NCBI GenBank assembly: GCA_048882385.1
Contig: JBHLRQ010000070.1
Coordinates: forward strand, 1 to 17,476
Source: Candidatus Thorarchaeota archaeon
GTDB taxonomy: Archaea; Asgardarchaeota; Thorarchaeia; Thorarchaeales; Thorarchaeaceae
DNA: 17,476 nt
Reading direction: 5' to 3'
Positions 1 through 8,392 of the stretch are shown here, piece after piece (within the stretch, counting starts at the first letter, position 1; each line of letters opens with the position of its first letter). Made by a program: the position numbers and the translations under genes. Under the pieces are notes generated by a model. That model worked only from the letters and a program-made list of their open reading frames with translations. It ran no database searches and was not told the origin of the DNA.

Positions 1-764
1 ATTGCATGACCAATAGTGTGGCCAAAGTTCAATATCTCTCTCTTGCCTTTTTCTTCTCTCTCATCCGACTTGATAATTTGCGCTTTATTCCTAAGTGCTC
101 TCTCCACAACTTTTGTGAGGACTGTAGGATTTCTGAGAATTATTTCATTTCTGCTCTCAACAAGAATATGGAAAAGCTCTGGATCCATTGTCATACCATA
201 CTTAATGACTTCTGCTAGTCCTGCTAGAAAATCATTGGTCGGTAGTGAATTGAGGGTACAAACATCAACTATTACCGCATGAGGTTGATAGAATGTCCCA
301 ACAAGATTCTTTCCTTCACTTAGATTGACTCCTGTTTTTCCACCTATGGACGAATCGACCTGTGCCAAAAGAGTTGTAGGCACCTGAATTAGCATCATCC
401 CTCTTTTGAATGTTGAAGCGACAAACCCCGCGATATCACCAATAACACCTCCTCCGAGTGCAATTATTGCATCTGAACGTGTTGCTAGGTTTTCACTCAA
501 GCAAGCATACAAGTCTTTCACTGAATCCAGAGTTTTTACAGACTCACCAGCTTGCAGGATTATCGGTATGACTTCTATCTCTGAGGTGTTTAGTTTTCCA
601 ACTATAGAATCGAGGTAGAATGGAGTAATAACATCATCCGAAATTATGAATGCTCTGTCAAATGAGCCTTTTAGAATTTCATTGATTTCCACAATCAAAT
701 TCTGTCCAATATATACAGGATATTCTCTACTTTCCGTATATACATCGAATCTAGAATAAATCAT
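1..764 (-). CDS. aroB: 3-dehydroquinate synthase, AroB type (3' end runs off the window; absent from the ORF track)
   Basis: Manual translation from ATG at 764: MIYSRFDVYTESREYPVYIG...AGESVKT...ALGGGVIGDIAGFVASTFKRG...QVPTTLLAQVDSSIGGKTGVN...GKNLVGTFYQP...GLAEVIKYG...LNFGHTIGHA. These are diagnostic AroB motifs. The start overlaps the tyrA stop (ATGA, 764-761). Confidence 0.95.
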   Translation of the reverse strand, partial: MIYSRFDVYTESREYPVYIGQNLIVEINEILKGSFDRAFIISDDVITPFYLDSIVGKLNTSEIEVIPIILQAGESVKTLDSVKDLYACLSENLATRSDAIIALGGGVIGDIAGFVASTFKRGMMLIQVPTTLLAQVDSSIGGKTGVNLSEGKNLVGTFYQPHAVIVDVCTLNSLPTNDFLAGLAEVIKYGMTMDPELFHILVESRNEIILRNPTVLTKVVERALRNKAQIIKSDEREEKGKREILNFGHTIGHA

Positions 765-1615
765 GATTTGCATCCCTCCTCCATGACCTTGAGCACTCGG
801 TACATTTCTTGGTACTTGTCTTCAAGACTTAGTTTCTCTTCCAAGCTTGACTTGATATCAGAATATGATTTCTCGAATCCTTCAATGTCTGAAGTCAGCC
901 GTTTCACTTCTTCGATAGTCTTGGTCAGCAACTTCTGCAAGATCTCAGTGAAGTATGCATTTTCCTTGTGGAGTGCACGATGGAATTCGGATGTGTGTGA
1001 CATGATACTTCCTGTTAGCATGAATTGAACTGCGAATGTTGTACCACTGAGTTGTTGCATTAGAGAAATGTCTTCATCTTTCAAAACTGACGCAAAAATC
1101 ATATTCATGAAATAGGGAAGTGATAATGTTAGTGCCATTATACGGTCATGAATATCTGCTTCAACAACGATAATCTGTGATTTTGGAAATAGACTTTCAG
1201 CTACGTTTCTCTCTTCATGACTATCATGAACTGGAATTAACGCATATCTCTTCTTGAGAGTACTCGCACCCGGACCAAACAGAGGATGTATTGATAGTGG
1301 GCGAATATTGTCATGAGCTATTTTTCTCAGATCTTCTATTATGTTCGACTTTAGTGTTGATATCTCACAGAGAATAGAATTCTCTCTCATGTAAGGAATA
1401 ACTTCTCGAATGACTGATGTAGTGTCCTCCATTGGTACTGATATCAATACAACATCTGCTTTAGCTGCTGCCACATTGTTTGAAATCAACTCGAATCCTG
1501 ATTTACCCCCATTTGCTTTTGGATCTGCAACCATCACAGAATGACCAACTTCGAGGAAGTGATTAACTAACCATTTTCCCATTCTACCCGCTCCACCAAT
1601 AACTGCTATCTTCAT
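761..1615 (-). CDS. tyrA: Prephenate/arogenate dehydrogenase (TyrA family)
   Basis: N-terminal Rossmann motif IAVIGGAGRMG, ISVP, EISTLK, SIHPLFGP and HDRIMA motifs. ATGA overlap with the upstream gene at 1615-1612. Confidence 0.9.
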   Translation of the reverse strand: MKIAVIGGAGRMGKWLVNHFLEVGHSVMVADPKANGGKSGFELISNNVAAAKADVVLISVPMEDTTSVIREVIPYMRENSILCEISTLKSNIIEDLRKIAHDNIRPLSIHPLFGPGASTLKKRYALIPVHDSHEERNVAESLFPKSQIIVVEADIHDRIMALTLSLPYFMNMIFASVLKDEDISLMQQLSGTTFAVQFMLTGSIMSHTSEFHRALHKENAYFTEILQKLLTKTIEEVKRLTSDIEGFEKSYSDIKSSLEEKLSLEDKYQEMYRVLKVMEEGCKS

Positions 1616-3009
1616 CCTAGAAACTCCTCCATCCTCTTTGCAGCTTCAACAAGAATGTCCTCAGGTTGGCACACTGAGATTCTGAAAAAACGAGAGTATT
1701 CTTGTCCATAAGCTGTACCGGGCACAACTGCAACTCCCTGTTCATTGAGAAGCCTGTCTGTAAATTCAAGTCCATCCAAATTCTCATGGTTCAACTTGGG
1801 AAAGATATAGAATCCACCATCTGGTCTTAGAAGAGAGAGTGGGAGTTTTTCCAATTTGTCACATAATGCGATCTGTCTTTTCTCAATTATTGTGGCAAAT
1901 TCTTTGACTTCATCCAAAAGATCCAGTGCTTTCACTCCTGCATATTGAATGAACTCAGGTACACATGTGAGGGAAAGATTCTGTAATTTGATCATCTTCT
2001 GAACTGTTTCAGCATTAGAAATAGCATATCCAAGTCTGAACCCGGTCATCCCAAATGACTTTGAAAAGGAATTTACATAGATTTGATTGCACTCTGGAAA
2101 CTGAAGTGTGCTTGTGTGGGGTGTGAATGAAAATTCCGAGTATACCTCGTCACTAATAATACGAATTTCATTCTCAATTGAAATCTCTGCAATCTTTTCT
2201 ATTGTTGACTCATCTAGGATCTTTCCTGTTGGATTGCATGGACTGTTTAGTATTATCACTCTTGTGCTCTGATTGATGTTGTCTTCGAGTGATCCAATAT
2301 CCAGCTTCCATTCATTTTCCATTTGTGTTGAAACATGGACCGGTCTTCCACCGACCTGTCTGATGCAATCTGAGTAAGCTGGATAAGACGGATCAATGAT
2401 AATAGCTTCATCGCCTGGTCTGAGCGACACAGTTAGACCCAGGTACAAAGCAAATCGTCCACCAACAGTGGTTATAACTTGATCTACAGAGATATCCGTA
2501 CCAAGTACTCTATTCAGATGTTCAGCAATTTTTGTCCGAAGATCCTGGATTCCTGCTGACTGAGTATATCCACTCTGTCCACCTGCTATGGCATTTGTCA
2601 TTGATTCAACAACAGCAACTGGAGGACCAAAATCAGGCTCTCCCACTTCAAGATGAAAGACTTCTTTCCCTGCACTCTCCAGTTTTCTAGCCTTCACAAA
2701 GATGTGGTATGCAGTCTGGGGTACTTTAGTTTCAAAATGGCTTTCCTGTTTTCTTATGGACTCCGTTATGAGCTCATTGACAAGCCGTACCGCAAAATCA
2801 ATATCACTTGCATCTCTCCTACACTGTTCTACGACTTTTGCTTTGAGATTTCTTTCAACTTCTCTATCTACAAGTTCAATCCCTTTCTTAATCTTCTGAG
2901 CACCTATCCTTGCTGCAAGTTCACTCCTGCGACCTGCCAGGCTCACAATCTCCAACGTAAGTTGTTCCATCTCTTGTCTAAGGTCACCCAGGCTTACCTC
3001 TTCAGTCAT
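1612..3009 (-). CDS. Fusion of AroQ-type chorismate mutase (N-terminal ~90 aa) and class I/II PLP-dependent aminotransferase
   Basis: N-terminus LGDLRQE...RRSELAARIGAQK...VDREVE...ESIRKQ follows the AroQ pattern. C-terminus has GEPDF, NSPCNPTG, SDEVY and the PLP-lysine motif SFSKSFGMTGFRLG. SD AAGGAGG at 3026-3020. Confidence 0.9.
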   Translation of the reverse strand: MTEEVSLGDLRQEMEQLTLEIVSLAGRRSELAARIGAQKIKKGIELVDREVERNLKAKVVEQCRRDASDIDFAVRLVNELITESIRKQESHFETKVPQTAYHIFVKARKLESAGKEVFHLEVGEPDFGPPVAVVESMTNAIAGGQSGYTQSAGIQDLRTKIAEHLNRVLGTDISVDQVITTVGGRFALYLGLTVSLRPGDEAIIIDPSYPAYSDCIRQVGGRPVHVSTQMENEWKLDIGSLEDNINQSTRVIILNSPCNPTGKILDESTIEKIAEISIENEIRIISDEVYSEFSFTPHTSTLQFPECNQIYVNSFSKSFGMTGFRLGYAISNAETVQKMIKLQNLSLTCVPEFIQYAGVKALDLLDEVKEFATIIEKRQIALCDKLEKLPLSLLRPDGGFYIFPKLNHENLDGLEFTDRLLNEQGVAVVPGTAYGQEYSRFFRISVCQPEDILVEAAKRMEEFLG

Positions 3010-3092
3010 TGGACTATTTCCTCCTTTGTTACGCTACCTGAGCAACAATTATCGAGAGACCTTCCATTGTGTAGAATTGATTTTAGAGTCAT
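3006..3092 (-). CDS. Putative 28-aa upstream ORF (uORF3) whose TGA overlaps the chorismate mutase ATG
   Basis: ATG at 3092, MTLKSILHNGRSLDNCCSGSVTKEEIVQ*. ATGA overlap at 3009-3006. GGTGG lies 4 nt upstream of the ATG. Confidence 0.3.
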   Translation of the reverse strand: MTLKSILHNGRSLDNCCSGSVTKEEIVQ

Positions 3093-3108
3093 AGAACCAC
3101 CAAAACAA
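3049..3108 (-). CDS. Putative aromatic leader peptide 2 (uORF2), MFWWFYDSKINSTQWKVSR
   Basis: AGGTG-N7-TTG start followed by TTT TGG TGG TTC TAT, five consecutive aromatic codons. TAA stop at 3051-3049. Confidence 0.6.
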   Translation of the reverse strand: MFWWFYDSKINSTQWKVSR

Positions 3109-3132
3109 GTTACGACACCTATACAGCGTCGC
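3101..3132 (-). promoter_or_regulatory. Leader hairpin GCGACGCU-GUAUA-GGUGUCGU followed by U-rich AACUUGUUUU (candidate attenuator terminator and/or SD sequestrator of uORF2)
   Basis: 8-bp stem with three G-U pairs that work only on the minus-strand transcript. The loop and 3' arm contain AGGUG. Confidence 0.5.
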
Positions 3133-3156
3133 TAATCTTGACTAGCAGTCTATCAG

Positions 3157-3246
3157 CTAATAATAGCTATAATAGACGCCACTATACTGACAGTTTACTG
3201 TCAAGTATGTTCGAGTGGCAACTGCATTTTCCGTCAAGATTTTCAT
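3157..3246 (-). CDS. Putative Tyr-rich leader peptide 1 (uORF1), MKILTENAVATRTYLTVNCQYSGVYYSYY
   Basis: ATG at 3246 (alternative in-frame ATG at 3258), TAG at 3159-3157. 6 of 29 codons are Tyr, including 4 of the last 5. It lies upstream of the Tyr-branch genes. Confidence 0.7.
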   Translation of the reverse strand: MKILTENAVATRTYLTVNCQYSGVYYSYY

Positions 3247-3270
3247 TAAACTGTCCATCAGAAGTCTGAC

Positions 3271-3283
3271 CTAATATAGTTGG
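3271..3283 (-). promoter_or_regulatory. Possible TATA box of the aromatic operon
   Basis: Minus strand reads CCAACTATATTAG about 30 nt upstream of the uORF1 ATG, compatible with a near-leaderless transcript. Confidence 0.35.
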
Positions 3284-3367
3284 TGTTCAATGAGGAAAAT
3301 CCGCTCGTATAATGCATTAAGCTTAAGTGAGAATCAAAATACCTCATAATCTATTGAGGTCTTCATA

Positions 3368-5260
3368 TTGAGGATGCTACAGATTCACAGCGATGGCTTT
3401 GCCTATGAAGCCAAGAGAAAAGCACTGAAGAATGCAGAAGAAGTCAAAGAGAAGTTCTACAAGACTGATGACTCGTGCCTAGTCAATTTTATCGCTGCTG
3501 AAACTACAGATGCAAATGATGTAGCTAGTGCTGCAAAAGAAACTGCAGATATGATTGCCAGTGCCGCTGATGAGGTAAAAGAGAAAAATGTTGTAGTTTA
3601 TCCCTTTGTACATCTTAGCGAGAATCCTTCAAAGCCTAGTGTTGCCCTTAAGCTGTTGAAATCTGTGTCAAGAGACTTGGAAGTTCGAGGATTCAATGTA
3701 ATCCGTGTTCCATTCGGATGGTACAAAGCGTTTGAGCTTCATTGTAAAGGACATCCACTTGCAGAACGCTCAAAGGTTCTTGATGTGTCCAAGAAAATTG
3801 CTAAAGCTGCAGATGTCGAAGTCACTGAAGGAGAAGATCTCACTGCACTTGTTGCTGAAGAAAAAGCCTCATCAGCATTCTATATCATGGAACCAAATGG
3901 GAAAGTAACGGATGCAAGAGAGTTCGATTATTCCAAGTATAAGGAACTTGAGCTTTACATGAGATATGAAACTGCAAAAGACAGAATTGCTCGTGAACCA
4001 CCTGCACACATCGAGCTGATGAAACAGCTTGAACTAGTCGATTACGAGCCTGGTTCTGATGCGGGAAACTTCAGGTGGCCACCTCGAGGGCTTACTCTAA
4101 AGAAAGCAATTGAGGAGAGAGTTACTGCCGAGATGGTCGACTATGGTGCTCATGTACTTCAGACGCCTCTGATTTATGACTACCAACATCCCTCGCTGAA
4201 ATCATATCTCCAAAGATTTCCTTCTCGTCAATACGTTGTGAAATCAGGGGATCAAGACTATTTTGCTAGGTTCAGTGCATGCTTTGGACAATTCTTGCTT
4301 ATCTCCCAAGCAACTGTTTCACACAAGCAGTTACCCTTGAAGTTATTCGAGATTGCTCCATCTTTCCGGCGAGAGCAGAGCGGTGAACTAGCTGGAATGA
4401 GAAGATTAAGAGCATTCACGATGCCTGATATCCACGAAATCGTTGCTGATGAGAAGATGGCCAAAGCTGCTGTGATGAACCAGATAGAATTTGTTGAGAA
4501 ACTCCATATTGAACTAGAGGTTTCCTATGAAGTTTCATTTAGGGTTCTGAAAGAGTTCTATGAGAAAAACAAGAAATTCATGGAAAAGATAGCTGACCGG
4601 ATTGGGAAGCCAATTCTAATTGAGGTCTTTGACGAAAGATACGCATACTTCATCTTCAAGGGCGAATGGAATGTAGTTGATGCCCAGAAGAAGGCTGGCT
4701 GTCTTGGAACAATCCAAATCGATGTTGAAAATAGTGAACGCTTCAACATCACCTACGTTGACGAAGATGGCAAGGAGAAACACCCGCTCATTCTGCACAC
4801 TTCGCCATCTGGTGCTATCGAGAGGATCCTCTATGGGGTTCTAGAACAAGCATACAAGGATATGAAGAGTGGAAAGGTCCCGCACCTTCCCCTATGGATG
4901 ACTCCTGTTCAGGTGAGATTCGCACCAGTAGACGATAGTTACGTAGAATATTGTATTGAACTTGGAAAAACGCTTGATGCTGCAGGAATTCGATATGAGA
5001 TTGATGACAGATCACAAACAGTGGGCAAGAAAGTCCGATCTGCTGAGAAGCTCTGGATTCCTTACATTGTTGTCATTGGTGGGAAAGAAAAGAAGAGCCG
5101 AGAGCTATCGGTTCGAAGACGTGAGCTAAAGGATCAAGTGAATATGACAATTGACGATTTAGCAAAAGATGTAGAAGAGAAAACGAAATTTGCGCCCCAG
5201 CAACGGTTGCTTCTCCCGAATTTAGTTTCCAAGCAAGCAATCTTCTCAAGAGAAGTGTGA
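3368..5260 (+). CDS. thrS: Threonine--tRNA ligase, archaeal type with N-terminal editing domain
   Basis: Editing-domain motifs MRMLQIHSD, YPFVHLS, PFGWYKAF. Catalytic motifs RFSACFG, SFRREQSGE, RLRAFTMPDIH, ILHTSPSGAIER. C-terminal anticodon-binding domain. GAGGT-N7-TTG start. Confidence 0.97.
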   Translation: MRMLQIHSDGFAYEAKRKALKNAEEVKEKFYKTDDSCLVNFIAAETTDANDVASAAKETADMIASAADEVKEKNVVVYPFVHLSENPSKPSVALKLLKSVSRDLEVRGFNVIRVPFGWYKAFELHCKGHPLAERSKVLDVSKKIAKAADVEVTEGEDLTALVAEEKASSAFYIMEPNGKVTDAREFDYSKYKELELYMRYETAKDRIAREPPAHIELMKQLELVDYEPGSDAGNFRWPPRGLTLKKAIEERVTAEMVDYGAHVLQTPLIYDYQHPSLKSYLQRFPSRQYVVKSGDQDYFARFSACFGQFLLISQATVSHKQLPLKLFEIAPSFRREQSGELAGMRRLRAFTMPDIHEIVADEKMAKAAVMNQIEFVEKLHIELEVSYEVSFRVLKEFYEKNKKFMEKIADRIGKPILIEVFDERYAYFIFKGEWNVVDAQKKAGCLGTIQIDVENSERFNITYVDEDGKEKHPLILHTSPSGAIERILYGVLEQAYKDMKSGKVPHLPLWMTPVQVRFAPVDDSYVEYCIELGKTLDAAGIRYEIDDRSQTVGKKVRSAEKLWIPYIVVIGGKEKKSRELSVRRRELKDQVNMTIDDLAKDVEEKTKFAPQQRLLLPNLVSKQAIFSREV

Positions 5261-5485: not shown

Positions 5486-6628
5486 TTGAAGGTCCTTGTA
5501 CTGGGGTCAGGTCTAATGGGCAAAGGTGCAGCCTATGACCTGGTAAAACAAGACGAAATTGAACAAGTGATTGTCGCTGATATTGATCCAAAATGCTCTG
5601 AATCTCTAGCAAAAGAAGTGGGTCCTAAAGCTGTAGCTGAAACTGTTGATGCCACCAAGAAGAATCAGCTCGCCAAGGTGTTCTCCAAGGTTGATTCTGT
5701 GATCAGCGCTGTTAGCTACAAAGTGAATCATCTCCATACTCAAGTAGCGATAGAAACTGGCACACACATGTGCGATCTAGGGGGAAACAAGTTCGTAGTA
5801 GAGAAGCAGCTTGAGTTGCATGATCAAGCAAAAGATGCAGGTGTAACTGTAGTCCCTGATTGTGGTCTAGCTCCTGGAATGGTAAGCGTTCTTGCTAGAG
5901 AAGGAATTGAGTATCTTGACAGAGTTGAAGATGTGAAGATTCGTGTTGGAGGTCTCCAACAGGAACCACGACCACCACTGAATTATTCATTGATTTTCTC
6001 TGTTGAGGGTCTGATAAATGAGTACATCGAACCCTGTGTCGCTATACGAAATGGAGAGATAGTTACCGAGGATCCACTCGTAGGTTTCGAAGAAATCACC
6101 TTTCCAGAACCCTTTGGCAAACTTGAGGCTTTTAACACAAGTGGAGGTACCTCGACTCTACCACAAACCTACCTCGGCAAAGTGAATAACCTCGACTATA
6201 AGACAATCAGATATCCAGGACACGGACACAAGATGTGGTGTCTTATGAAACTCGGATTGATGGATAGCGAGGAGATTGATGCTCGAGGTGTGAAGATAGC
6301 ACCAAGACAAGTTCTTGAGTCCTTATTAGAAAAGAATCTACCACCTTCCGGTAAGGATGTGACTCTCCTTCGAGTTACAGTAGAAGGTTGGAAGGGCACT
6401 GAAGCAAGAATCGTCGAGTACGAAACTATCGATTACTTCGATGAAGAAACCGGACTCACTGCAATGATGCGGACAACGTCATTCCCAGCAGCTATAACTG
6501 CTATGATGATGGCGGATGGTCGCATAAGTGATAGGGGCGTTCTCACCCCTGAGAGGTGTATTCCTCCAGCTCCCTTCATAGAGGAGCTCAGAGCTAGAGG
6601 AATAGAAATCAAGCACAGAGTGATATGA
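5486..6628 (+). CDS. Saccharopine dehydrogenase / lysine 6-dehydrogenase family oxidoreductase
   Basis: VLVLGSGLMG Rossmann motif, DLGGN, DCGLAPG, EGLINEY, LEAFNTSGG, YKTIRYPGH, TAMMRTT. SD GAGGAG before the TTG. Confidence 0.85.
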   Translation: MKVLVLGSGLMGKGAAYDLVKQDEIEQVIVADIDPKCSESLAKEVGPKAVAETVDATKKNQLAKVFSKVDSVISAVSYKVNHLHTQVAIETGTHMCDLGGNKFVVEKQLELHDQAKDAGVTVVPDCGLAPGMVSVLAREGIEYLDRVEDVKIRVGGLQQEPRPPLNYSLIFSVEGLINEYIEPCVAIRNGEIVTEDPLVGFEEITFPEPFGKLEAFNTSGGTSTLPQTYLGKVNNLDYKTIRYPGHGHKMWCLMKLGLMDSEEIDARGVKIAPRQVLESLLEKNLPPSGKDVTLLRVTVEGWKGTEARIVEYETIDYFDEETGLTAMMRTTSFPAAITAMMMADGRISDRGVLTPERCIPPAPFIEELRARGIEIKHRVI

Positions 6629-6731
6629 CCTCTAGGAATCAAATCTGCAAGATTTCGATAGACTTCTAATTCTGTACTACACCTAAACCTTATCAATACT
6701 AAAGCAAATCCTGCGAAGAGGTTCTCAATCT

Positions 6732-7436
6732 TTGAAAGTGTTAGTGATAAACGGTAGTCCTCGAAAAAATCATGGAGTGACAGCGTATCTTCTCAAGCAT
6801 TTCATTGATGGAATGGAAGAAGCAGATGCAGTAGTGGAGATTCTTTATTCTAAGGGCTTGGATCTTGGGGATTGTAGGGGGTGTTTCAATTGCTGGTCTA
6901 CAACTCCAGGAAAGTGTATCCAAGACGATGAAATGAAAGAAGTTCTTGCGAAGATAGCTGACGCGGATCTCCTCATTATCGCTACACCTGTATATGTAGA
7001 TGGAATGACAGGTTCTTTAAAGACACTTCTTGACCGTTCAATTCCACTACTTCACGGGGCCTTTGAGTTACGTGATGATCATTGTCGTCACGCTTTGCGT
7101 GACCATGTTAAAGCTGGAAAGATAGCGCTCTTTTCGGTATGTGGCTTCTATGAGATGGACAACTTTAACCCATTAATCAGCCATGTCAAAGCTATAAGTA
7201 AGAACATGAATCGTGAATACATCGGTGCTCTTTTACGTCCGTATGGATGGATTGTCGAGGGAGGTATAAGCCAAGGGTTTAAACTCGAGTACATACTCGA
7301 TGCAATAAAAGAGGCTGGTAACCAGCTAATCTCTAAAGGGGCAATGAATGAAGAAACACTAGCAACCATTGCTAGTGAGATTGTTCCAAGAGACAGAGTC
7401 ATCGCGATGCTTAAACAGAATTATGGTGATAAGTAA
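6732..7436 (+). CDS. Iron-sulfur flavoprotein / NADPH-dependent FMN reductase (flavodoxin-like) family
   Basis: INGSPRK FMN loop, CxxCxxCx7C (CRGCFNCWSTTPGKC), ATPVY, LKTLLDR. Confidence 0.88.
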   Translation: MKVLVINGSPRKNHGVTAYLLKHFIDGMEEADAVVEILYSKGLDLGDCRGCFNCWSTTPGKCIQDDEMKEVLAKIADADLLIIATPVYVDGMTGSLKTLLDRSIPLLHGAFELRDDHCRHALRDHVKAGKIALFSVCGFYEMDNFNPLISHVKAISKNMNREYIGALLRPYGWIVEGGISQGFKLEYILDAIKEAGNQLISKGAMNEETLATIASEIVPRDRVIAMLKQNYGDK

Positions 7437-7465
7437 AAATTGCGTAGAAGGAAATCACTATTCAT

Positions 7466-8392
7466 ATGATTATTCAAACAAATCATATGATAGAAGAGAT
7501 TCATCAAGATGAACTAAATGCAATTGGTCCACTCATTGACAAGTATAGAGAGCAATTTCCTGAAAGAATACCTGAGAATTTCTTGAATAGGATCAAAGAA
7601 TCTGTTGCAGATGACAAAGCCTGTGTTTTCGGTGCGTATTCAGAAGGTCATTCAGTGACCGGAATCGCACTTTTTGGGAAAGTGAGTAAGCGGATTAATT
7701 TTGTATATGGAATGGGCGACATTGAAACTGAGAAGAAACTTGTGACTGCTCTATTTGACCGATTCTCTGATGAGTTCTCCTACATTGGCACAGGAGGTCC
7801 ATGGATACCGGAGGAACTGGCAAAGCACATCCAAGAGATTGGTTTTGGGAGATACGACCGAATGTACATGACCCTTCCTCGTGCAGGTATTGAATCCCTT
7901 GATGAGCCAAAGTTGCCTGATGGTATGAGCTTCAATCCATATACTCCTGAACTACGTGAGGAGATATCTCAAGTTGTTTTCGAAGGGAACGATAATCATG
8001 TAGACCAAAGCGTATTTCCAGAATTCTTTGGTACTATTGAAGCTTGTCAGCGTCTTCTAGAAAACATTGAGGACAACAGATATGGTGAGTATCGAGAGTC
8101 ATTGTCCTGGATTCTAAGAAGAAATGGAGAAGCAATTGGTGCCTGTTTCATGACGGTCAGGAATGGGGATATGGGGTATGTCCCTGAAATCGTAATCAAC
8201 AAGGAATATCGGGGCAAGAAACTGGGGAAATCAATCCTTGTTCATTCAATGAAGAGGTTACTAGAGTCTGATTCGGATCTAATCAAAGTGGATCTTGACG
8301 TAACCCTGAGTAATCACGCAAGGTTTCTGTATGAGTCACTTGGGTTTACGAAGGTTCAAGATTATACTATGTACACTTGGATTAGGAAATAG
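7466..8392 (+). CDS. GNAT family N-acetyltransferase (true start may be 7487)
   Basis: C-terminal acetyl-CoA motif INKEYRGKKLGK and NHARFLYESLGF. Confidence 0.85.
   Translation: MIIQTNHMIEEIHQDELNAIGPLIDKYREQFPERIPENFLNRIKESVADDKACVFGAYSEGHSVTGIALFGKVSKRINFVYGMGDIETEKKLVTALFDRFSDEFSYIGTGGPWIPEELAKHIQEIGFGRYDRMYMTLPRAGIESLDEPKLPDGMSFNPYTPELREEISQVVFEGNDNHVDQSVFPEFFGTIEACQRLLENIEDNRYGEYRESLSWILRRNGEAIGACFMTVRNGDMGYVPEIVINKEYRGKKLGKSILVHSMKRLLESDSDLIKVDLDVTLSNHARFLYESLGFTKVQDYTMYTWIRK

Follow-up and report, generated by a model that had tools for sequence, protein, structure and literature searches.

Leader-peptide attenuation, in which ribosomes read the nascent RNA, is a textbook mechanism of bacteria, and the leader family described here bears on the question of whether archaea use it as well. 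The question is raised by a 17,476-nucleotide (nt) stretch of DNA from a Candidatus Thorarchaeota archaeon (contig JBHLRQ010000070.1 of GenBank assembly GCA_048882385.1), referred to throughout as the window, in which a short leader precedes the minus-strand gene for a chorismate mutase fused to an aminotransferase (CM-AT). An earlier note on the window had proposed that this leader senses aromatic amino acids by means of leader peptides and had known of no archaeal precedent; literature searches likewise found neither an archaeal leader-peptide attenuator nor a purely tyrosine (Tyr)-rich leader, with the proviso that supplements of Asgard papers could hold unlabelled cases. Comparison of 29 copies of the leader upholds the core of that proposal, as an open reading frame (ORF) with a cluster of Tyr codons and a set of overlapping alternative helices stand before an archaeal Tyr-branch operon in 29/29 copies. 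A sensor of the leader-peptide type remains the best explanation of the conserved leader, and the reading favored here, a ribosome-read Tyr sensor built as a translational relay, is assigned a probability of roughly 0.58.

The leader family and the operon behind it

Full-length orthologues of the CM-AT fusion occur in only seven of the 28 genomes of the genus (25 were searched), in one case with the gene divided between two contigs, and in those seven genomes the ~270 nt upstream of CM-AT are far more alike as DNA than the proteins, which are 50–63% identical. When the 121-nt core was made into a covariance model (R1), it matched one copy in each of these seven genomes, seven further copies spread over four more genera within the family, and seven of 19 stretches that a pattern scan of metagenomes had yielded. 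A second covariance model (R2), built on the 21 copies from that round, recovered the leader in 22 of the 87 genomes searched in the class and in six of its 17 genera. In the subset with completeness of 90% or more and contamination of 5% or less, 11 of 24 genomes carry it. R2 also supplied eight held-out copies, none of which had been used in model building. The final collection consists of 29 copies (28 distinct cores) from 22 genomes of one archaeal class and seven metagenome contigs; the copies are kin, and some of the metagenome contigs may represent the same organisms as the genomes. The leader occurs as one copy per genome and is upstream of a CM(-AT) gene in 29/29 copies, at a distance of +198 to +310 in the eight held-out copies and of about 270–290 nt, judged by eye, in the first 14. 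Beyond this family, no copy was detected in a sample of 124 genomes drawn from 26 further families in the phylum. The leader sequence is also present in 20 DNA datasets labelled sediment, mangrove, soil, marine or plain 'metagenome', with no RNA runs listed, and a contig search with a single CM-AT protein returned only two bacterial aminotransferases.

The unit behind the leader is the Tyr branch of the aromatic pathway together with the pathway entry, and not the general Phe, Trp and Tyr operon described by the earlier note. In six of six distant loci the leader is followed by four co-directional ORFs of ~465, 294, 355 and 361 residues (compared by size), and Pfam assignments made for two of the six are, in order, the CM-AT fusion, prephenate dehydrogenase (TyrA), 3-dehydroquinate (DHQ) synthase (AroB) and a DAHP synthase with a ferredoxin-like domain. 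The gene for prephenate dehydratase is located on a different contig from the CM-AT operon, and it is this division, with CM-AT, TyrA, AroB and DAHP synthase inside the operon and prephenate dehydratase elsewhere, that defines the unit as Tyr branch plus entry. Because the gene upstream of the leader varies from locus to locus, the threonyl-tRNA synthetase that neighbors it in the window can be placed outside the unit. This archaeal-type gene is divergent from the operon and starts at position 3368, and the 358-nt spacer between the two is the site of the leader. The host genome (3.7 Mb in 256 contigs, 42.7% G+C) encodes actin (440 bits) and profilin at the Pfam cut-off, and on this basis it is taken to be that of an Asgard archaeon.

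Within the genus, the genomes in which the leader was found are the same seven of 28 that hold a full-length CM-AT orthologue (with 25 of the 28 covered by the orthologue search), and in class genomes without the leader only stand-alone aminotransferase paralogues were among the best matches. The whole cassette, in which the DAHP and DHQ synthases are of bacterial type, may have been transferred or inherited in a patchy manner. Some aminotransferase matches in relatives contain one or two in-frame TAA codons (G010:C110:46308-47555, G004:C107:16093-17331 and G032:C43:81637-82797) and could be pseudogenes, frameshifts or assembly errors.

Proposed sensor frame, junction fold and proposed relay frame

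The TATA-like box that the earlier note placed in the leader is found in all 29 copies, as a TATA[AT][AT]A heptamer that ends 23–26 nt (mode 25) before the ATG or GTG of the first upstream ORF (uORF1). Since this distance is fixed, and given the usual spacing between an archaeal TATA box and the transcript start, transcription is predicted to begin with the ATG at 3246 or one nucleotide ahead of it, and uORF1 is probably leaderless. The longest form of uORF1 in the window (3258–3157) has the YSGVYYSYY ending originally described, and its frame is conserved in 29/29 copies, but the start at 3258 is not. That codon lies 13 nt after the TATA box and would fall upstream of a transcript that begins at or next to 3246.

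Read from the conserved start, uORF1 is open for 29–32 codons in 29/29 copies, the eight held-out copies included. Fifteen copies start with ATG and 14 with GTG; the alignment shows a further in-frame ATG at codon 5 for 13 of the 14 GTG copies and for none of the ATG copies, and an ATG is found at codon 1 or codon 5 in 28 of the 29. The two other frames across the same region contain 1–9 stops per sequence, at ~9–10 variable sites each, compared to none in frame 0. The chance that none of ~19 variable stops would fall in one named frame is ~5e-4 if stops were even across frames, a figure that ignores composition. Internal length differences are multiples of three, and two of them, both in other genera, add Tyr codons. 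On this alignment evidence, uORF1 is a reading frame conserved beyond chance. Each peptide contains three to six Tyr, of which two to five are in the last 11 codons in 29/29 copies, and the ends vary (YSGVYYSYH, FSGYYSYSYSL, YSGYYWYTL, YSGSYSYRA and YSGYYSYYL) around a YSGxYxSY-like pattern. Among 112 amino-acid-rich candidates for upstream small ORFs (sORFs) in the 3.7-Mb genome, uORF1 is the only one with at least five Tyr in ten residues. Ten of the 112 were checked with Pfam and none preceded matching biosynthesis genes, and no Phe run was found upstream of the prephenate dehydratase gene.

The leader folds around uORF1 into a three-way junction (Table 1), in which helix P1 closes a junction formed by P2, P3–P4 and P5. 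Covariation, which the earlier note had suggested as a check, is evident for this fold: across the 29 copies, 87.9% of the cells are paired versus 27–44% with the partners slid, 13 pairs have changed on both sides, and the covariation score was reached by none of 500 shuffles. The 21-copy set has 91.4% of its cells paired and 14 pairs changed on both sides. These values were obtained on alignments fitted to the model, which favors the fold. Folding of the window's own leader gave z = -4.36.

The 3' strand of P1 has a second potential partner. Combined with the linker that follows, it is complementary to a downstream block containing the Shine-Dalgarno (SD) motif and ATG of a further ORF (uORF3), and the resulting helix, P1', is near-isoenergetic with P1 (mean duplex energies over the 29 copies of -12.0 and -11.7 kcal/mol for P1' and P1, respectively). 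Compared to shuffled blocks, P1' has a mean z of -2.2, and it covers at least three of the five SD nucleotides or at least two of the three ATG nucleotides of uORF3 in 27/29 copies. Lineages with differing linkers show matching changes in the block, and when partners were swapped among nine lineages, 500/20000 permutations scored at least as low. Duplex energies were used for this purpose, and formal P1' pair counts on a MAFFT alignment were abandoned, because indels shift the register between lineages; a column-based scan for conserved alternative helices returned only short G/U-rich candidates beside P1, P3 and P4. Placing a 28-nt ribosome footprint over the Tyr codons turns the minimum-energy fold from P1 to P1' in 11/14 representatives. 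The stop codon of uORF1 is located 3–5 nt before the P1 3' strand in 19/29 copies. A variable hairpin, Pv, has a sequence that changes in nearly every lineage and is retained as a hairpin (mean free energy of -8.7 kcal/mol over the 29 copies); it keeps its shape and not its sequence because it nests inside P1'.

The most conserved stretch after the fold is the block itself, in which GGTG[GAC] is followed after 4–6 nt by an ATG in 29/29 copies. This ATG, at position 3092 in the window, begins uORF3, the conserved second ORF, which was overlooked by the earlier note, as was the three-way-junction fold. The uORF3 frame is open for 25–52 codons in 29/29 copies, across sequence that is not alignable between genera, and the other two frames over the same spans contain 103 and 86 stops. 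In every copy the uORF3 stop lies close to the CM-AT start, from 2 nt ahead of its first base to 11 nt beyond it, with overlaps of 4 nt in 13 copies, 1 nt in two, 8 nt in four and 11 nt in six, and a gap of 1–2 nt in four; for L037, L045 and L059 the CM start picked by the script is doubtful. Because stop and start overlap or abut in 29/29 copies, the arrangement suggests that uORF3 is a real relay ORF, the translation of which would be coupled to that of CM-AT. The window's uORF3 has no aromatic run. Coupling by termination-reinitiation is known for overlapping gene pairs in archaea (PMC6728339, PMC10666635), and the junction of uORF3 and CM-AT resembles the pairs outlined in those reports. 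Unlike them, the upstream partner here is a 25–52-codon ORF of variable sequence that encodes no enzyme, and a separate SD mostly precedes CM-AT.

Recognition of uORF3 changes how the downstream half of the leader is to be read. A G/U-rich hairpin proposed to hide an SD does exist as a local hairpin (3107–3081) in the minimum-energy fold. The MFWWFY frame (uORF2), put forward by the earlier note as a second leader peptide, does not exceed chance expectation: a nearby start followed by at least five codons occurs in six of the 29 copies, all from the window's own genus; 14 copies reach a stop directly behind one W codon, and 12 have no in-frame start. Orthologous leaders, in which conserved Tyr and F/W/Y codon runs had been anticipated, thus contain the Tyr run in 29/29 copies but a uORF2-like reading in only those six, and the conserved bases beneath uORF2 are explained by the SD and ATG of uORF3 in another frame. 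A hairpin just 5' of the CM-AT SD is predicted in the window fold, as had been described; it cannot be counted as conserved since its sequence is not alignable between genera. The block at 3109–3083 was also considered as an anti-SD for the ribosome-binding site of CM-AT and was rejected, as its duplex energies do not improve on those of shuffles (mean z of 0.03 for 24/29 copies, the other five being without a script-found CM start). Exposure of the CM-AT SD showed no consistent change between whole-leader folds with and without footprints in 12 representatives, and no fourth segment, that is, no conserved partner downstream of the block, was seen in folds of 21 representatives.

A candidate tyrosine relay and its rivals

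In the mechanism proposed here, transcription would start at or next to the ATG or GTG of uORF1 and produce a leaderless mRNA, and a ribosome would load on the nascent 5' end and translate the 29–32 codons of uORF1, the last third of which would bring it onto Tyr codons located on the P3 3' strand and P5. The P1 3' strand and linker would choose between the 5' end of uORF1 (forming P1) and the SD/ATG of uORF3 (forming P1', with Pv nested), and as uORF3 ends on the CM-AT start, translation of CM-AT would be coupled to it by termination-reinitiation. The preferred logic is kinetic and trp-like. When Tyr-tRNA is ample, the ribosome would reach the stop codon and cover the P1 3' strand while the SD block is being made; pairing between linker and SD would nucleate, P1' would zip upon release of the ribosome, and the hidden uORF3 start would result in low expression. 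When Tyr-tRNA is scarce, the ribosome would halt 20–31 nt earlier and leave the P1 strands free, and P1 could close behind or around it before the SD/ATG block is transcribed ~75–85 nt later, so that an open uORF3 start would result in high expression. We infer the translation of both ORFs, the role of Tyr-tRNA supply in setting the position of the ribosome, and the sign of the response. That sign, high expression under Tyr scarcity, is given about even odds.

Several observations weigh against this reading. The ratio of nonsynonymous to synonymous variation (pN/pS) of uORF1 is 0.92 versus 0.95 and 0.52 in control frames, and its variation is even across codon positions (33/39/32); the peptide sequence is under no purifying selection, which fits a leader peptide and equally fits no translation at all. 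When alignment columns were resampled, frame 0 stayed open in ~85% of draws for six of seven templates (27% for L041), such that under this null the openness of uORF1 adds little beyond the make-up of the columns, and TAT codons would be favored anyway by the AU-rich palindromic stem of P5. P2, at 73% paired, is a weak helix, as is P1' in L041, L042, L054 and L079, and both the kinship of the copies and the fitting of their alignments to the model detract from the comparative evidence. At equilibrium, the predicted accessibility of the uORF3 start in 21 representatives is lowest with the ribosome on codons 0–10 and highest, equal to or above that of free RNA, with the ribosome at the stop codon; a ribosome placed on the Tyr cluster leaves it at the level of free RNA or below, never above. 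A Tyr-stalled ribosome would therefore hide the relay start, the opposite of what a biosynthetic operon would call for under positive coupling by uORF3, and equilibrium folding taken at face value would have Tyr scarcity lower expression. The kinetic argument, in turn, fails in the window's own genus, where the uORF1 stop is 14–18 nt before the P1 3' strand.

Some of these same points would suit a translational relay that does not sense an amino acid, in which P1 and P1' tie CM-AT to ribosome traffic as an enhancer or general-capacity gate and the Tyr codons are a by-product of P5. Such a relay would account for the lack of any rise in uORF3 start accessibility with the ribosome on the Tyr codons, for a P5 stem built from UAU-rich sequence, and for a uORF1 peptide without purifying selection. 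It would leave unexplained why the Tyr cluster is kept in 29/29 copies even though P5 differs in length and sequence, why insertions add Tyr codons, why the one Tyr-rich upstream sORF of the genome precedes the Tyr-branch operon, and why the copies with fewer Tyr in uORF1 (L082–L084) have a second Tyr cluster in uORF3. A relay without sensing is considered unlikely, and it is the strongest of the alternatives.

A riboswitch would place the sensing in the RNA, with the junction binding Tyr, prephenate, 4-hydroxyphenylpyruvate or uncharged tRNA-Tyr to alter P1 and uORF1 being incidental or auxiliary. The layout is the usual one for such an element, a closed and covarying multi-stem domain before a biosynthetic operon with P1 set against a helix that hides a ribosome-binding site, and the invariant TGGTG of the downstream block loosely recalls the UGGN motif carried by the T-box. 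However, Rfam at gathering scores returned no match over the whole window, and at E up to 10 the 2950–3400 region returned only two chance-level matches and no T-box. Conservation is higher in paired columns (1.34 bits) than in junction and unpaired columns (0.75 bits), which is the reverse of a ligand-binding aptamer and is to be expected where strands must fit two partners. The uORF1 frame, its start codons and its in-frame indels are all maintained, and the promoter spacing places the start codon at the 5' end of the RNA. On these grounds a riboswitch is less likely again than a relay without sensing.

Classical transcription attenuation would make Pv and its T-rich tract a ribosome-controlled premature terminator, either intrinsic or assisted by aCPSF1/FttA, and it is judged improbable. 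Archaeal termination, as outlined in PMC10450193, involves poly-U and aCPSF1; a simple scan flagged Pv with its tail AACTTGTTTT as terminator-like, and 5–7 T occur within 10 nt after Pv in 29/29 copies. Yet Pv is nested in P1' and not excluded by it, no helix competing with Pv was found, and the T-rich block leads directly into the conserved start region (SD and ATG) of uORF3, which extends to CM-AT. A crude genome-wide test found no excess of T runs after stops (T5+ in 14% of downstream stretches versus 12% upstream). Least credible, to the point that little weight is given to it, is the two-input logic element of two serial leader peptides (Tyr, then Phe/Trp/Tyr) advanced by the earlier note, as a TTG-started LFWWFY frame is indeed present in the window but uORF2 has its start and at least five codons in just 6/29 copies.

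The Tyr relay favored here can be compared with several known systems. In ermC-type translational attenuation, a leader ORF and alternative pairing free or hide the next SD/AUG in response to a drug-bound ribosome, using four serial segments. The Tyr relay shares with ermC the leader ORF and the alternative pairing at the SD/AUG of the next ORF, and differs in its proposed signal, tRNA supply, and in that the strand countering sequestration is the extreme 5' end of that ORF. Closest among the described systems are the leaderless polycysteine sORFs of mycobacteria, the Ms5788A class (10.1101/834739), which in that report's outline are first cistrons rich in codons for the amino acid of their pathway, a layout that uORF1, Tyr-rich and probably leaderless, would share. 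The stalled ribosome of the mycobacterial leaders, as outlined there (10.1101/834739), lies directly on the site-hiding strand, whereas the Tyr codons here are on P3/P5 and the hiding strand (P1 3' strand and linker) is 9–45 nt further on, so that any effect would be indirect. The leader described here further differs in having a candidate relay ORF between the proposed sensor and the enzyme gene, and in its archaeal host. A duplex that hides an SD/AUG and an alternative that frees it, both expected of the cysteine-sORF and ermC types, are present in silico (P1' in 27/29 copies, with P1 of equal energy). Release of the downstream start by a stall on the control codons is not seen at equilibrium in the 21 representatives, and only the kinetic argument provides it.

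Resemblances to trpL and pheL of Escherichia coli and to aroR of Corynebacterium glutamicum, in the account of one review (PMC11802643), include a short leader ORF with cognate codons near its end and mutually exclusive helices, one strand of which is beside the stop codon, with ribosome position proposed to decide between them here as well. The Phe-Tyr-Phe leader aroR also has Tyr among its control codons; per the review, Tyr availability is without effect on aroR control (PMC11802643). These three leaders act through an intrinsic terminator and have an SD and a 5' untranslated region, whereas here no competing terminator helix was found, the conserved downstream block is a ribosome-binding site, and uORF1 is predicted to be leaderless. 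Of the features characteristic of the trpL/pheL class, the cluster of end-product codons was found (Tyr cluster in 29/29 copies, before an operon of CM-AT and TyrA), while a terminator with an excluding antiterminator was not, there being no helix competing with Pv and no genomic T-run signal.

It is tentatively suggested, at slightly less than an even chance, that with this leader the Asgard archaea possess the first amino-acid sensor of Archaea to work through the ribosome. It would be a one-shot device acting during transcription: the pioneer ribosome on the leaderless, Tyr-rich uORF1 would set the fold of the nascent leader, and the result would be relayed through uORF3 to the first enzyme gene. 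If true, it would be a rare Tyr-specific leader, with sensor ORF, relay ORF and enzyme gene in series, and the closest prokaryotic relatives of eukaryotes would use coupled transcription and translation for gene control. At ~250 nt the family is a compact object for testing: it comes in 29 natural variants, has a clear cognate amino acid, and combines two small ORFs with one competing-helix pair.

Coordinates, neighboring genes and minor observations

Table 1. Features of the leader and its operon, by position in the window
Feature	Position	Strand	Basis or remark
Conserved promoter motif AACTATATTAGG	3270..3281	-	Alignment of copies
TATA-like heptamer TATATTA	3277-3271	-	Within the promoter motif
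uORF1, conserved part (29 codons + TAG)	3157..3246	-	Tyr-rich, proposed sensor frame; open in 29/29
Tyr-codon cluster (codons 21, 25, 26, 28, 29)	3160..3186	-	Overlaps P3 3' strand and P5
Three-way junction P1-P5 around uORF1	3135..3240	-	RNAalifold consensus
P1, closing helix	3240-3233 with 3142-3135	-	
P2	3225-3221 with 3149-3145	-	
P3	3219-3214 with 3183-3178	-	
P4	3203-3198 with 3193-3188	-	
P5	3176-3149	-	
Switch strand (P1 3' strand)	3135..3143	-	Pairs with 3240-3233 (P1) or 3095-3087, the uORF3 start region (P1')
Pv, variable hairpin	3112..3132	-	Nested in P1'
Conserved block	3083..3109	-	T-rich tract, SD-like GGTGG (3101-3097), uORF3 ATG (3092-3090)
uORF2 of the earlier note (LFWWFY..., TTG start)	3049..3108	-	Not conserved
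uORF3, 28-codon candidate relay ORF	3006..3092	-	TGA overlaps CM-AT ATG (ATGA)
SD of CM-AT itself (GGAGG)	3024-3020	-	
CM-AT: chorismate mutase (CM_2) fused to class I/II aminotransferase	1612..3009	-	Pfam
Prephenate dehydrogenase, TyrA-like	761..1615	-	Pfam PDH_N
3-dehydroquinate synthase (AroB)	3..773	-	Pfam; truncated by contig end

Between the start of the threonyl-tRNA synthetase gene and the leader TATA box, the window contains a 6-bp hairpin (3341–3360) with T-rich tails on both strands, which a simple scan flagged as terminator-like in both directions. Past the threonyl-tRNA synthetase, the plus strand (5486–8392) encodes saccharopine dehydrogenase-like, FMN reductase-like and GNAT acetyltransferase genes that are unrelated to the leader.

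Two other sets of small frames came to attention. Upstream of 28669–30225 on G000:C1 are overlapping small frames very rich in Asp, Ser and Thr/Met (e.g., a D run with W), which by the checks made are a low-complexity repeat region and not the leader of an amino-acid operon. Upstream of prephenate dehydratase (L076, on G000:C187), small frames on opposite strands, at 1482–1562(-) and 1998–2108(+), both contain ...QISPSAPSF..., which points to an inverted repeat of at least ~30 nt and possibly a small mobile element.

Finally, in the three copies L082–L084 (genus g28), where the Tyr content of uORF1 is reduced to three or four, uORF3 lies ~150–200 nt after the core and has a Tyr cluster of its own (YLSYxVYT-like). 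These Tyr codons are on a 10-nt strand that, by eye, is complementary to the stretch after the SD-like motif before CM-AT, and uORF3 could in this genus provide a second Tyr sensor, one that acts directly as in mycobacteria.

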